Shown in pieces: positions 20,748 to 25,807 of a DNA stretch of 64,000 nt; position 1 is the first letter of the stretch, and every line of letters starts with the position of its first letter. A program made the translations under genes and the position numbers. The notes under the pieces were generated by a model. The model had not been told where the DNA came from. It was given only the letters and a program-made list of their open reading frames with translations, and ran no database searches. The stretch spans positions 1-64,000 of IMG/VR virus record IMGVR_UViG_3300014059_000006; one strand, given 5' to 3'. This stretch comes from a virus (Duplodnaviria; Caudoviricetes).

Positions 20748-20911
20748 TGGTTTTATTTCAACCGGCACGATACTGTCGTCATTGTGGGGAACAACTAGAA
20801 GAAATCCATACTAATTTTAAAACTATTTTGGTGGGTGATACATTCTTAGGATATAAACCTCACAAATGTAAAGACCCATTAGAACAAATTGTAAATAAAT
20901 TTGGAAATTAA
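20747..20911 (+). CDS. small CxxC protein
   Basis: 54 aa ORF MVLFQPARYCRHCGEQL..., TAATG overlap; below the ORF-track cutoff. Confidence 0.55.
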   Translation: MVLFQPARYCRHCGEQLEEIHTNFKTILVGDTFLGYKPHKCKDPLEQIVNKFGN

Positions 20912-20931
20912 AAAACTTTAATGTATCTTTG
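20900..20931 (+). promoter_or_regulatory. Bacteroidota housekeeping-sigma promoter of tRNA operon 1
   Basis: TTTG ... TATCTTTG (-33/-7 consensus TTTG / TAnnTTTG). Confidence 0.8.
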
Positions 20932-20941
20932 TATTATAATA

Positions 20942-21019
20942 ATGAAAATGAATACACAACATACGCAACGTTTTACCCCGTTCTTCTGTGAAGAGCCTGG
21001 GGGAGGTTGTGGATGTTAG
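20942..21019 (+). CDS. attenuator leader peptide 1 (MKMNTQHTQRFTPFFCEEPGGGCGC)
   Basis: Lies between promoter and terminator; codons 5-19 are exclusively T,Q,H,R,F,P,C,E, the isotypes of the downstream tRNAs. Confidence 0.85.
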   Translation: MKMNTQHTQRFTPFFCEEPGGGCGC

Positions 21020-21050
21020 GGAAAGTAATTTCTCTATTGTTAAAAAACAC

Positions 21051-21083
21051 AAACCTCCATCTCAAAAAGTTGGAGGTTTTTTT
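21051..21083 (+). terminator. attenuator terminator 1
   Basis: AAACCTCCA...TGGAGGTTT + T-tract; 5' arm alternatively pairs with GGAGGTTGTG (21002-21011). Confidence 0.9.
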
Positions 21084-21089
21084 ATTTAT

Positions 21090-21122
21090 GGCCCCTTCGT
21101 CTATCGGCAAGGACAAATGGTT
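21090..21122 (+). pseudogene. 5' half of disrupted tRNA-Glu
   Basis: GGCCCCT-TC-GTCT ATCGGCAA GGAC-A-AATGG-TT; acceptor pairs with AGGGGCT at 21753-21759. Confidence 0.85.
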
Positions 21123-21127
21123 AAAAT

Positions 21128-21200
21128 GTTTTCGTCGTCTATTTGGTTAGGACAAATCCCTTTCAAGGATTAAAAGTGGGTTCAATCCCCATCGAAAATA
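21128..21200 (+). tRNA. tRNA-Glu(TTC), carried in HNH cassette
   Basis: Cloverleaf; AATCC CTTTCAA GGATT. Confidence 0.9.
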
Positions 21201-21238
21201 CAATTAGGAAAGTACAGTTTAATATTGTATATTTAAGT

Positions 21239-21730
21239 ATGAAGGAAGAAATATTAAAACTACGGCAGAGTGGTAAAACATATGTCGAAATTGTAAATGA
21301 GTTGGGTTGTAGTAAAGGTATTGTAAGTTATTATTGTGGTAAAAAAAACTGTTTTAAAAAAGTAAAAAGTGGATTTTGCAATTGTGGTAACAAAAAAGAT
21401 TATGACGCTATAGTTTGTCAAAAATGTAGGTCAATGGAAACACTAAAAAGAAATGAAAATAAAACATTAAGTGAGATTGCACTCGACGGTAATGCTAGAA
21501 TAAAATGGTCTTATTTGAGAAAGCAAGCACATAAAAAAATGGAAATTAATAATATAACTAAACAATGTTCGTTATGTGATTTTGATTTGGTAGTCGAGTT
21601 ATGTCATATAAAGCCAATAAGTAGTTTTCCAGAAACTACGTTGGTAAAAGAAGTTAATAGTTTAGATAATATGAGATACTTATGTCCTAATCATCATAAA
21701 ATGTTAGACAAGGGAATATTAAAAATGTAG
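21239..21730 (+). CDS. HNH endonuclease with N-terminal HTH
   Basis: CSLC...ELCHIKPI...N..DN.RYLCPNHH; start MKEEILKLR (track start 21143 lies inside the tRNA). Confidence 0.9.
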   Translation: MKEEILKLRQSGKTYVEIVNELGCSKGIVSYYCGKKNCFKKVKSGFCNCGNKKDYDAIVCQKCRSMETLKRNENKTLSEIALDGNARIKWSYLRKQAHKKMEINNITKQCSLCDFDLVVELCHIKPISSFPETTLVKEVNSLDNMRYLCPNHHKMLDKGILKM

Positions 21731-21760
21731 TAAAGACGGGTTCAACTCCCGTAGGGGCTA
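21731..21760 (+). pseudogene. 3' half of disrupted tRNA-Glu
   Basis: TAAAG-ACGGG TTCAACT CCCGT-AGGGGCT-A immediately after the HNH stop. Confidence 0.85.
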
Positions 21761-21768
21761 CAAAATAT

Positions 21769-21844
21769 AGCGTGTTGTGGAAGTCTGGTTTTTCCGCCCT
21801 CGTTTGGGACGAGGTTCGCATCGGTTCGAATCCGGTACACGCTA
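21769..21844 (+). tRNA. tRNA-Pro(TGG)
   Basis: CCTCG TTTGGGA CGAGG; AGCGTGT/ACACGCT. Confidence 0.92.
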
Positions 21845-21850
21845 CAAATT

Positions 21851-21890
21851 GGTGGGTTGTCTGAGTGGCGTTAGGTCGCGGTCTGCAAAA
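21851..21890 (+). pseudogene. 5' half of disrupted tRNA-Cys(GCA)
   Basis: GGTGGGT...GCGGT CTGCAAA then breaks; pairs with ACCCACC at 22448-22454. Confidence 0.88.
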
Positions 21891-21931
21891 TAAATTTGTA
21901 TTTTTGCAGATAATGTTGTATATTTGTTTAT

Positions 21932-22372
21932 ATGGAAAAATTATGTGCACATTGTAAACAAATAAAATCAACAGGTGATTTTAGGAAAAATAAAAGTAAG
22001 AAAGATGGTTGCCAAGCTTATTGTATAATATGTGATAAGAAAAAACAATCGGAGTGGTATGAAAAAAACAAAGAACGTTGTCTTATTAAGACAAAAGAGG
22101 GTAATGAGGTAAGAAGAAAAATAAATCAGAAATTTATAATAGAGTATTTAAAAGAACATCCTTGTGAAAAATGTAATGAGTCTGATATTGTTGTATTGCA
22201 ATTTGACCACCTAACTGATAAAAAGAGTGGTATAGCGCAATTAATATGTTCAGGTAATATACAACAGATAAAAACAGAAATACTAAAATGTCAAGTATTG
22301 TGTGCAAATTGTCACACAAGAAAGACGGCAAAAGATAATAATTGGTATAAGTTGGGGTGGTTGAGTGGATAA
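21932..22372 (+). CDS. HNH endonuclease
   Basis: CAHC..CIIC zinc ribbon; PCEKC...LQFDH...EI.KCQVLCANCH. Confidence 0.92.
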   Translation: MEKLCAHCKQIKSTGDFRKNKSKKDGCQAYCIICDKKKQSEWYEKNKERCLIKTKEGNEVRRKINQKFIIEYLKEHPCEKCNESDIVVLQFDHLTDKKSGIAQLICSGNIQQIKTEILKCQVLCANCHTRKTAKDNNWYKLGWLSG

Positions 22373-22421
22373 ACAAAACTCTGCAAAAGTTTAAACACCA
22401 GTTCGAGTCTGGTCCCCAACT
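22351..22421 (+). tRNA. tRNA-Cys(GCA), carried in HNH cassette
   Basis: GTTGGGG/CCCCAAC-T; AAACT CTGCAAA AGTTT; overlaps last 22 nt of the HNH ORF. Confidence 0.9.
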
Positions 22422-22422
22422 C

Positions 22423-24536: not shown

Positions 24537-24544
24537 TATTGCTA

Positions 24545-24607
24545 ATGAGATTCACTGCAACATTATATAGTTCGCTCTATTTACCTACTCGAGATAGGCT
24601 GAGATAA
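24545..24607 (+). CDS. attenuator leader peptide 3 (MRFTATLYSSLYLPTRDRLR)
   Basis: Core TTA TAT AGT TCG CTC TAT TTA matches downstream Leu/Leu/Ser/Ser/Tyr tRNAs. Confidence 0.85.
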   Translation: MRFTATLYSSLYLPTRDRLR

Positions 24608-24629
24608 CTATGTAATAAAAAAAATACGT

Positions 24630-24665
24630 AAAAACCCTCGGTCTTAATTGATTCGAGGGTTTTTT
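24630..24665 (+). terminator. attenuator terminator 3
   Basis: AAAAACCCTCG GTC...GAT T CGAGGGTTTTTT. Confidence 0.9.
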
Positions 24666-24672
24666 GTTTTAT

Positions 24673-24746
24673 ATTCCTGTGGGCAAAAGGTAAAGTCGCT
24701 GGTCTTAGGAACCAGAGTTTTAAGGGTTCGACTCCCTTCAGGAATA
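24673..24746 (+). tRNA. tRNA-Leu(TAG), short variable region
   Basis: CTGGT CTTAGGA ACCAG; ATTCCTG/CAGGAAT-A. Confidence 0.85.
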
Positions 24747-24751
24747 CAAAT

Positions 24752-24842
24752 GCTACTGTGGCGAAAATGGATGAGACGCGTTAGGTTTAAGCCCTAAAAC
24801 CCTGTGTGGTGAACATTGTCGGTTCGACCCCGACCAGTAGCA
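24752..24842 (+). tRNA. tRNA-Leu(TAA)
   Basis: TTAGG TTTAAGC CCTAA; long variable arm. Confidence 0.9.
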
Positions 24843-24848
24843 CAAACC

Positions 24849-24932
24849 GGAAGAGTTGCCGATGCTGAGGCAAGTAGTCTTGAAAACTACGATACGATGT
24901 AACAGTCGGGGGATGGATACCTCACTCTTCCG
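24849..24932 (+). tRNA. tRNA-Ser(TGA), atypical D/T loops
   Basis: GTAGT CTTGAAA ACTAC; GGAAGAG/CTCTTCC-G; T-loop ATGGATA. Confidence 0.8.
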
Positions 24933-24936
24933 CAAA

Positions 24937-25012
24937 GGTCAGCTAAGTACGTTGACTGTAAACAAGAACCTTGTGAAAGGTGCAAAGGTACTTCAGGGTG
25001 AAAGTCCCAATT
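24937..25012 (+). ncRNA. unassigned pseudoknotted small RNA between tRNAs
   Basis: Hairpin GGTCAGC/GTTGACT whose loop AAGTAC pairs with GTACTT; two further hairpins. Confidence 0.55.
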
Positions 25013-25013
25013 C

Positions 25014-25101
25014 GGAAAGCAGACGAATAATGGTTTGTCGTACTCCCCTGCTAAGGGAGCCTGTGTAAAAAGCAGTTAGAGTTCGAGCCTCTAGTTTTCC
25101 G
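25014..25101 (+). tRNA. tRNA-Ser(GCT)
   Basis: CTCCC CTGCTAA GGGAG; long variable arm; G73. Confidence 0.9.
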
Positions 25102-25106
25102 CATCT

Positions 25107-25139
25107 GGGTTAGATGGTAAATGTGGTTTAATCAGCGGT
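25107..25139 (+). pseudogene. 5' half of disrupted tRNA-Tyr
   Basis: GGGTTAG...GCGGT; pairs with ACCGT and CTTACCC in 25744-25786. Confidence 0.85.
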
Positions 25140-25183
25140 AAAAATATATTAGGATTTTACCATACTTTTTATTATATTTAATT

Positions 25184-25681
25184 ATGAAAGGTTTATTATC
25201 GAGTTACTCTGACGAGGAGTTTAAAAATATTGTAGACTTATCTGATTCATTTTCAGATATTAAAAAAAGGTTAGGGTACAAAACAACAAGTGGAGGGGTT
25301 TCTTCATTGATTAAAAAAAGAGTGGAGAAATTAAATTTAGATTTATCTAAGTTCACCAGAAATAAAGATAAAAGAATATTAAATTTAAAACGAGCAACAT
25401 TTGACATAACCGAGATTTTAATAGAAAACTCTAATTATACAAATAGAGATAGGCTGAAAATTCGATTAGTATCAGAAAAAATTTTAAAATATGAATGTGA
25501 AATTTGTAAAAATAATGGAACATGGAATAACGAACGATTATCATTACAGTTAGACCATAAAAATGGTATTAGTAATGACAACAGGATTAATAATATTAGA
25601 TTTTTATGTCCTAATTGTCATAGTCAAACTATTAATTTTAGTGGTAAAAATAAGGGGAGTACTGTTAAGATGGTGGATTAA
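25184..25681 (+). CDS. HNH endonuclease
   Basis: YECEIC...LQLDHKNG..NDNR..N.RFLCPNCHSQT. Confidence 0.95.
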   Translation: MKGLLSSYSDEEFKNIVDLSDSFSDIKKRLGYKTTSGGVSSLIKKRVEKLNLDLSKFTRNKDKRILNLKRATFDITEILIENSNYTNRDRLKIRLVSEKILKYECEICKNNGTWNNERLSLQLDHKNGISNDNRINNIRFLCPNCHSQTINFSGKNKGSTVKMVD

Positions 25682-25743
25682 CACTAGTCTGTAAAACTAG
25701 TACATTAGAAACTCAAAAGGTTCGAATCCTTTTACTCCCACCA
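25655..25743 (+). tRNA. tRNA-Tyr(GTA), carried in HNH cassette
   Basis: CTAGT CTGTAAA ACTAG; encoded CCA; overlaps last 27 nt of the HNH ORF. Confidence 0.9.
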
Positions 25744-25786
25744 AACCGTCGCGAAAGCTCTGTAGGTTCGATTCCTACCTTACCCA
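25744..25786 (+). pseudogene. 3' half of disrupted tRNA-Tyr
   Basis: ACCGT-CGCGAAAGC (variable arm)-GTAGG TTCGATT CCTAC-CTTACCC-A. Confidence 0.85.
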
Positions 25787-25807
25787 CTTTGTATTGTCAT
25801 ATATTTT

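Follow-up and report, generated by a model that had tools for sequence, protein, structure and literature searches.

Codon-matched leader reading frames and intrinsic terminators precede three tRNA arrays in a crAss-like phage

Results

The first 64 kb of a 107.9-kb virus record (IMG/VR IMGVR_UViG_3300014059_000006, positions 1 to 64,000; hereafter the window) carry three units of identical design that span positions 20900-25790, in each of which a promoter is followed by a short open reading frame (ORF), an intrinsic terminator and an array of tRNA genes. Judging from the composition of these ORFs, their pairing with the terminators and their counterparts in related phages, it is likely that each unit is a multivalent ribosome-mediated (leader-peptide) transcription attenuator with tRNA genes as its output, and the phage would probably make these tRNAs only when decoding of their codons is slow. 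An original prediction, made from the letters of the window, had placed a promoter, a leader ORF of 20-28 codons, a terminator and a tRNA array in this order three times, and all of these elements are present where it put them. Its reading of the layout as leader-peptide attenuation with tRNA output is supported by the sequence-level tests described below, from which we infer leader translation and stall-dependent switching.

The terminase, portal and major head protein encoded in the window match phage families, and the Crass_capsid Pfam family is present in the capsid genes of its relatives; on these grounds we regard the phage as crAss-like. The nearest named phages are at most 28% identical to it in TerL, so it has no cultured close relative. 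Our comparison set comprises 16 units from 8 crAss-like phages, with TerL 34-84% identical to that of the window (G001, 55%; P6, 67%; P4, 69%; G004, 34%). The layout of promoter, short ORF, terminator and tRNA array is the same in all 16 units, with the start, stop and reading frame of the leader ORF kept in every one. The original prediction had named lack of conservation of the leaders as evidence against it, and they persist as ORFs in all 8 phages. G001 has the same three units as the window, in a different gene order and with intact arrays.

Within the window, all three units lie on the plus strand. A pattern search (TTTG, 20-nt spacer, TAnnTTTG) located their promoters at 20900-20931, 23485-23516 and 24505-24536. 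This pattern occurs 14 times in the window, compared with 6.1 ± 2.4 expected, and 7 of the matches fall within 20900-28394, where they stand in front of the leaders and the other genes. Its boxes and spacing (-33 TTTG and -7 TAnnTTTG at ~20 nt) agree with the Bacteroidota housekeeping-sigma type, which makes these sites candidate promoters. Each leader ORF starts 8-21 nt past the -7 box, as is also the case in 13 other units, and its stop codon is separated from the terminator hairpin by 23-32 nt. The hairpins have predicted folding energies of -12.5 to -16.1 kcal/mol, and the first tRNA begins 3-11 nt past the T-run. Across all units, hairpins of -11.4 to -18.0 kcal/mol with a T-run are found 3-18 nt ahead of the first tRNA. 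We typed the tRNAs with ARAGORN and an Rfam scan; the Ala and Ser(TGA) tRNAs, missed by ARAGORN, were confirmed by alignment to the intact homologues of relatives.

We refer to the run of codons drawn from the amino acids of the array as the core of a leader, and to the antiterminator strand in the 3′ segment of the ORF as region 2. Leader ORF 1 (20942-21019) has 25 codons and a TAG stop, and its core (codons 5-19) uses only Thr, Gln, His, Arg(CGT), Phe, Pro, Cys and Glu codons. Region 2 of this unit lies at 20998-21009 (duplex -12.3 kcal/mol; 4.2% of shuffles equal) and terminator 1, a stem-loop followed by a T-run, at 21051-21079. Array 1 (21091-22845) contains, in order, an old split tRNA-Glu, Glu, an HNH ORF, Pro, an old split Cys, an HNH-like ORF, Cys, Phe, Thr, Arg(ACG), Gln and His. 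Leader ORF 2 (23538-23624) starts with GTG, with an alternative ATG at 23559, and has a 19-codon core of Asn, Lys, Ile, Met, Val, Ala, Gly, Trp, Arg(AGA) and Asp codons. Its region 2 (23605-23616) nearly repeats the sequence of the terminator 3′ arm, with a duplex energy of -14.7 kcal/mol that 0 of 500 shuffles equal, and terminator 2 with its T-run (23647-23677) is followed by a reduced array 2 (23681-24496) of Ala, Asp, a LAGLIDADG ORF, a tRNA 3′ fragment, Lys and Asn. Leader ORF 3 (24545-24607; 20 codons) has a 7-codon core with both Leu codon families, both Ser families and Tyr. Unit 3 has the weakest region 2 (24596-24604; duplex -9.6 kcal/mol, equalled by 5.8% of shuffles); terminator 3 and its T-run (24631-24663) precede array 3 (24673-25790), which consists of Leu(TAG), Leu(TAA), Ser(TGA), a 77-nt insert, Ser(GCT), an old split Tyr, an HNH ORF and Tyr. 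The leader transcripts of units 1-3 are all more stable than shuffled sequences (z = -5.35, -2.47 and -4.48, respectively).

The codons of the leaders correspond closely to the tRNAs behind them. In leader 1, 15 consecutive codons all come from the eight amino acids of array 1, and in leader 3, 7 consecutive codons come from Leu, Ser and Tyr; runs of these lengths do not occur in ~8,000 windows taken from the long genes of the same phage, in agreement with the match originally proposed for these two units. The proposed match of leader 2 held only in part: ten amino acids make up its run of 19 codons, and no more than four of the ten corresponding tRNA kinds are found in its array, as had been noted beforehand. 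The three cores jointly represent all 20 amino acids with the little overlap that had been claimed, since Arg alone is shared and is split between cores by codon family.

This correspondence extends to the relatives, where the original prediction had proposed that leader composition be compared with array content. All 16 leaders include every amino acid that their own array serves. Among the units whose arrays are intact (12 of the 16), the longest in-set run spans 7-19 codons and never occurs in the ~8,000 real-gene windows, a comparison made for 14 units, with the runs of the two P4 units scored separately. When leaders are set against arrays in a matrix for G001, P6 and the window, the diagonal stands out: each leader fits its own array and not the others. 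Permuting the amino-acid labels reached the observed summed run length in 0 of 200,000 trials for G001, 0 of 200,000 for P6 and 1 of 200,000 for the window. The order of codons within cores is scrambled between phages, such that distant pairs are 0.29-0.56 identical after alignment while the cores remain 100% in set. A kept set in scrambled order is the signature of selection on composition rather than on the peptide.

The strongest single test of the match between leader and array comes from G004, in which the tRNAs are grouped in another way: Phe, Asp, Asn, Lys, Glu, Trp, Tyr, two Ser, Cys and Arg(TCT). The core of its single leader is 13 codons long and uses exactly the ten amino acids of this array. 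Only 3 of 200,000 random ten-letter sets do as well, and no partition from the clade of the window fits the G004 leader. Leader composition thus tracks array content in relatives, including in this different partition.

The match also respects codon families. Arg codons are CGN in unit-1 leaders, whose intact arrays carry Arg(ACG), and AGA in unit-2 leaders and in G004, with Arg(TCT). Two cases depart from this rule: the first lies at a core edge, and the second belongs to the decayed unit of L098. In unit-3 leaders, Leu and Ser are each represented by both of their codon families. On contigs from another wastewater sample, leader 1 occurs as a strain variant that has lost a Phe codon in frame and carries three synonymous changes and a Pro to Arg(CGT) replacement, the last of which is still in set and of the correct codon family. 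Leader 3 is identical in two variant strains despite their differing flanks.

A related arrangement is apparent in the annotation of phage phiCbK (JX100813), in which gp083, a hypothetical protein of 45 residues, is followed by a predicted terminator and then by an array of Pro, Pro, Lys, Lys, Leu, Leu, Leu, Ala, Ser and Ser tRNAs (the Ala tRNA comes from ARAGORN and is unannotated in the record). gp083 contains a 14-codon run drawn only from the five amino acids of this array. It is a less clean example, as many Thr codons in gp083 have no matching tRNA in the annotated array.

We then considered whether the leader RNAs have the mutually exclusive structures of an attenuator. The original prediction held that the 3′ end of each leader can pair with the 5′ arm of its terminator. 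The stretch of the ORF that pairs best with the terminator 5′ arm falls within its final ~25 nt in each of the 14 units tested, and this partner is located from -25 to +4 relative to the stop codon. Against dinucleotide shuffles, the pairing has a mean z of -2.9, with p ≤ 0.058 in 11 of the 14 units. Terminator sequences vary between phages, and ORF tails vary along with them. Because scrambled leaders align unreliably, we examined this covariation without alignment, by comparing the duplex that each terminator forms with its own leader with those it forms with the leaders of other units. Predicted own-unit duplexes average -12.7 kcal/mol and other-unit duplexes -7.1 kcal/mol (16 units; 0 of 100,000 permutations), which supports the proposed pairing and shows the stem covariation that had been suggested as a check on it. 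The C-termini of the leaders, which fall outside the amino-acid set, would accordingly be constrained as RNA.

The positions of these elements relative to one another are nearly constant. Between the end of the core and region 2 there are 0-13 nt, and in 15 of 16 units a further 1-15 nt separate region 2 from the stop codon, which is 18-39 nt ahead of the terminator. This geometry places the sensing codons at exactly the positions where a stalled ribosome would leave region 2 free. To follow the switch along the leader, we modelled the ribosome as a mask of ~30 nt advanced codon by codon. With the A site on core codons, the nascent terminator 5′ arm is predicted to pair upstream, forming the antiterminator; this pairing is lost a few codons past the end of the core. 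In full-length folds, the sensing codons pair with the ORF tail in many units, as a 1:2 hairpin (pause or anti-antiterminator) would require.

The incomplete match of unit 2 can be followed into the relatives. No tRNA for Ile, Met, Val, Gly, Trp or Arg(TCT) is present anywhere in the 107.9-kb record of the window phage. By contrast, the homologous array in G001 consists of Ala, Lys, Arg(TCT), Trp, Ile, Met, Gly, Val, Met, Asn and Asp, which are exactly the ten kinds represented in leader 2 of the window, and the same is true of P6 and P4. From these full arrays, we conclude that array 2 of the window is a decayed full array whose leader keeps the ancestral roster. Trp, Arg(TCT), Ile, Met, Gly and Val follow Lys in the unit-2 arrays of relatives, with Asn next after them in P6 and P4; Asn comes directly after Lys in the window, indicating that those six kinds were lost. 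Reduced arrays behind unreduced leaders are also found in unit 2 of P2 (Ala, Asp), in L098 (Pro, Gln) and in unit 3 of P3 (Leu, Leu). Separately, the otherwise tight array of G001 has a gap of ~115 nt between Gly and Val (L004 2431-2546), in which ARAGORN and Rfam detect no tRNA; it may hold another small RNA or a degraded tRNA.

The tRNA content of the window arrays is as originally described, but the arrays are not simple, as several of their tRNAs are split by homing-endonuclease cassettes. A tRNA-Glu at the head of array 1 is split in its anticodon-loop region into halves at 21091-21127 and 21731-21763, which match the 5′ and 3′ parts of the intact tRNA-Glu of P6. The interrupting segment (21128-21730) consists of a divergent intact tRNA-Glu (21128-21201) and an HNH endonuclease ORF (21239-21730, Pfam HNH_2), and looks like a homing endonuclease that brings a replacement tRNA, one that is probably not cleaved by the endonuclease of its own cassette. 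The old tRNA-Cys is likewise in two halves (21851-21890 and 22431-22456; 39/40 and 26/26 identical to the Cys tRNA of P6) around an insert at 21895-22422, a cassette with a promoter and an HNH-like ORF; the tRNA-Cys of this cassette is divergent, agreeing with the P6 tRNA at only 47 of 70 positions. The halves of the old tRNA-Tyr (25103-25145 and 25744-25790) enclose an HNH ORF (Pfam HNH) and a new tRNA-Tyr (insert ~25184-25743). We know of no description of endonuclease cassettes carrying a replacement tRNA. Array 2 contains a LAGLIDADG endonuclease ORF (23881-24315), which has a promoter to itself at 23844-23875; behind the ORF is an orphan tRNA 3′ fragment (24316-24345). Several relatives have an intein with intein-splicing and LAGLIDADG domains in the large terminase gene (L109 10001-13249; P0060, P0064, P0065 and P0081), a further sign of heavy homing-endonuclease traffic in this phage clade. 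In array 3, the 77-nt segment between Ser(TGA) and Ser(GCT) (24937-25013) is missing from a strain variant, represented by a contig of run X3 in which just two other letters separate 24936 from 25014.

Two tRNAs of the window lie outside such units. One, a solitary tRNA-Pro at 12966-13036 on the minus strand, is not preceded by a leader unit. A tRNA of the amber-suppressor type (anticodon CTA) at 27698-27770, with a promoter at 27620-27650, also lacks a leader and is kept in at least three of these phages (also L004 4188-4260 and L117 3330). TAG recoding was considered as the reason for this tRNA and rejected, as TAG read-through fuses no ORFs in the window. TAG is the stop codon both of leader 1 of the window and of leader B of G001, and in the latter, suppression of TAG would bring the ribosome into the terminator 5′ arm.

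Several searches define the range of these units. A TerL alignment scan of viral contigs yielded 80 loci, mostly 22-34% identical, among which units were present only in G001 and G004, and a metagenome scan yielded 11 loci with a unit only in L098. A search of viral contigs for a conserved tRNA-Leu pattern recovered G001 alone, and small neighbouring ORFs used as queries found no relatives. DNA similarity to named phages was limited to HNH endonucleases. No tRNA array is present within 10 kb of TerL in L110, L113-L116 or L118, and G003 has no tRNAs at all. The more distant phages G009, G020, G023 and L028 (TerL ~25%) have arrays with no leader or terminator upstream of them. G004 provides a natural contrast between a gated and an ungated array inside one genome: two divergent tRNA arrays flank a common 240-nt intergenic region (L086 1464-1703), the plus-strand array behind a full leader-terminator unit and the minus-strand array beginning a few bases past a bare promoter.

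Discussion

We propose the following sequence of events for these units. Host RNA polymerase would start at the Bacteroidota-type promoter, and a ribosome would load on the near-leaderless short ORF. If all core codons are decoded fast, the ribosome should reach the 3′ end or stop codon of the ORF and cover region 2, allowing the terminator hairpin to form and transcription to end ahead of the tRNAs. Scarcity, lack of charging or cleavage of the tRNA for any core codon would slow its decoding and stall the ribosome upstream; the free region 2 would then pair with the emerging terminator 5′ arm, and the polymerase could read into the array. The shortage might be caused by host anticodon nucleases, as originally suggested, or by a plain mismatch in codon supply or the decay of host tRNAs. 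A unit of this kind would act as an OR gate over 3 to 10 amino acids and as a homeostat for tRNA supply. As the array supplies exactly the kinds that the core tests, the loop would be one of negative feedback.

A number of our observations weigh against this model or restrict its reach. Four units (unit 2 of the window, unit 2 of P2, L098 and unit 3 of P3) have arrays that are small subsets of what their leaders would test, indicating that the match is not promptly maintained after tRNA loss; unit 2 of the window no longer supplies six of the ten tRNA kinds that it would sense. Full promoters like those of the units also precede the HNH-like ORF at 21932 and the LAGLIDADG ORF at 23881, and the distal tRNAs of arrays 1 and 2 may therefore escape attenuator control. 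The attenuator would be the sole gate in unit 1 of G001 and P4, where no gene lies inside the unit. The antiterminators of unit 3 of the window, unit B of G001 and G004 are weak (5.8-11.6% of shuffles equal). When no ribosome is included, the antiterminator is the predicted fold in 9 of 14 modelled units, which differs from trp-type superattenuation and makes any role of a 1:2 hairpin uncertain; unlike trp, the system may be on by default and shut by translation. With 1-5 codons per amino acid in the core, its sensitivity to a mild shortage is uncertain. Finally, leaders are absent from some arrays, namely the divergent array of G004 and those of the phages with ~25% TerL identity, and the device is therefore clade-specific rather than obligatory.

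The same hardware could serve another purpose, as an infection-stage timer or cost saver that senses a global slowing of translation from decay or dilution of host tRNAs rather than a specific loss to defence nucleases. Many amino acids are tested only once or a few times each, so that summed dwell time could equal single codons in weight, and both triggers are plausible, as codon supply and the evasion of defences have each been linked to phage tRNAs in published work (PMC10264068, PMC11555353, PMC11464382). However, the strict partition of codons by array, down to the isoacceptors of the Arg, Leu and Ser families, exceeds what a sensor of global rate would need, and we consider this purpose unlikely. 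Less probable still is a switch with reversed or translation-independent logic, in which the ORF region serves mostly as an RNA structure, read-through occurs by default, and the outcome depends on something other than ribosome position, such as a phage or host protein or direct T-box-like pairing between tRNA and RNA. The ribosome-free folds described above would suit such a switch; the preservation of start, stop and frame in 16 of 16 units, the in-frame nature of the natural deletion in leader 1, and the ending of the in-set run where the ribosome begins to mask region 2 would not. Synonymous variation within cores moreover points to selection at the level of amino acid or tRNA, and our Rfam scans found no T-box or other riboswitch. 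That the short ORFs are ordinary small or chance genes with terminators of their own, and resemble the arrays by coincidence, has nothing more in its favour than the many short ORFs of AT-rich phage DNA and is practically refuted by the permutation tests, with probabilities of ~1e-5 or lower per phage repeated in independent partitions.

Why phages have tRNA genes is a decades-old debate, in which codon compensation, the replacement of decaying host tRNAs and the evasion of tRNA-cleaving defences have each been put forward. If the leaders work as predicted, the phage itself reveals the signal, which would be slow decoding of exactly the codons of its tRNAs, and the debate becomes a testable regulatory circuit. 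More tentatively, tRNA arrays in several unrelated phage lineages (crAss-like phages and phiCbK) might be demand-driven, with OR-gate attenuators releasing replacement tRNAs upon depletion of any cognate host tRNA, for example by the anticodon nucleases of host defences; this broader idea is possible, though we regard it as doubtful. Were it true, the sequence of a leader would state which decoding failures the phage is built to detect. The units would also extend leader-peptide attenuation to RNA genes of the translation apparatus, with up to ten amino acids per leader, a much higher valence than in the classical examples, and each leader would be a compact natural sensor of tRNA availability. 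For annotation, they offer the rule that the ancestral tRNAs of a decayed array can be predicted from its leader, as for unit 2 of the window.

Multivalent attenuators are known from enterobacteria, where the ilvGMEDA and ilvBN leaders contain Leu, Val and Ile codons and the thr leader contains Thr and Ile codons. The phage units share with these a promoter-proximal short ORF with regulatory codons for more than one amino acid, an intrinsic terminator downstream, and a mutually exclusive antiterminator, here a predicted one, built from the 3′ segment of the ORF. They differ in their output, which is biosynthetic enzymes in the ilv and thr systems and here tRNA genes, with only inserted endonuclease ORFs besides. 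They would also sense 3-10 amino acids, mostly with 1-5 codons each instead of long runs, are found in phages behind a Bacteroidota-type promoter, and have no sequence similarity to the enterobacterial leaders. The Rfam leader families (His, Leu, Thr, Trp and others) have no match at E ≤ 1 in positions 19000-30000 of the window and none at the gathering score in the loci of 7 relatives. A second precedent is the pheM leader of pheST, the attenuator of the Escherichia coli phenylalanyl-tRNA synthetase. As proposed for the phage units, leader-peptide attenuation there acts on a part of the translation machinery needed for the sensed codon; it concerns one synthetase and one amino acid, however, whereas the phage units would control many tRNAs themselves.

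T-box RNAs bind uncharged tRNA directly through a specifier codon, with no need for translation. They resemble the proposed action of the phage units in sensing the state of specific tRNAs through a terminator/antiterminator switch upstream of translation-related genes. The phage units, on the other hand, have a conserved short ORF and no match to the T-box family (RF00230, with stem I, specifier loop and antiterminator motif), either in 19000-30000 of the window or in the loci of the 7 relatives. With regard to cargo, phage tRNA sets can replace host tRNAs that have been depleted or cleaved (PMC10264068, PMC11555353, PMC11464382); our finding has the same cargo but concerns the control of array expression. 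A look-up of terms in PMC10264068 and PMC11025619 found no mention of attenuators, leaders, terminators or promoters, and our literature searches found no published description of leader-peptide attenuation of tRNA genes. In their structural criteria, the units are thus of the known ilv, thr and pheST kind, and it is tRNA genes that would be new, as an output class of leader-peptide attenuation.

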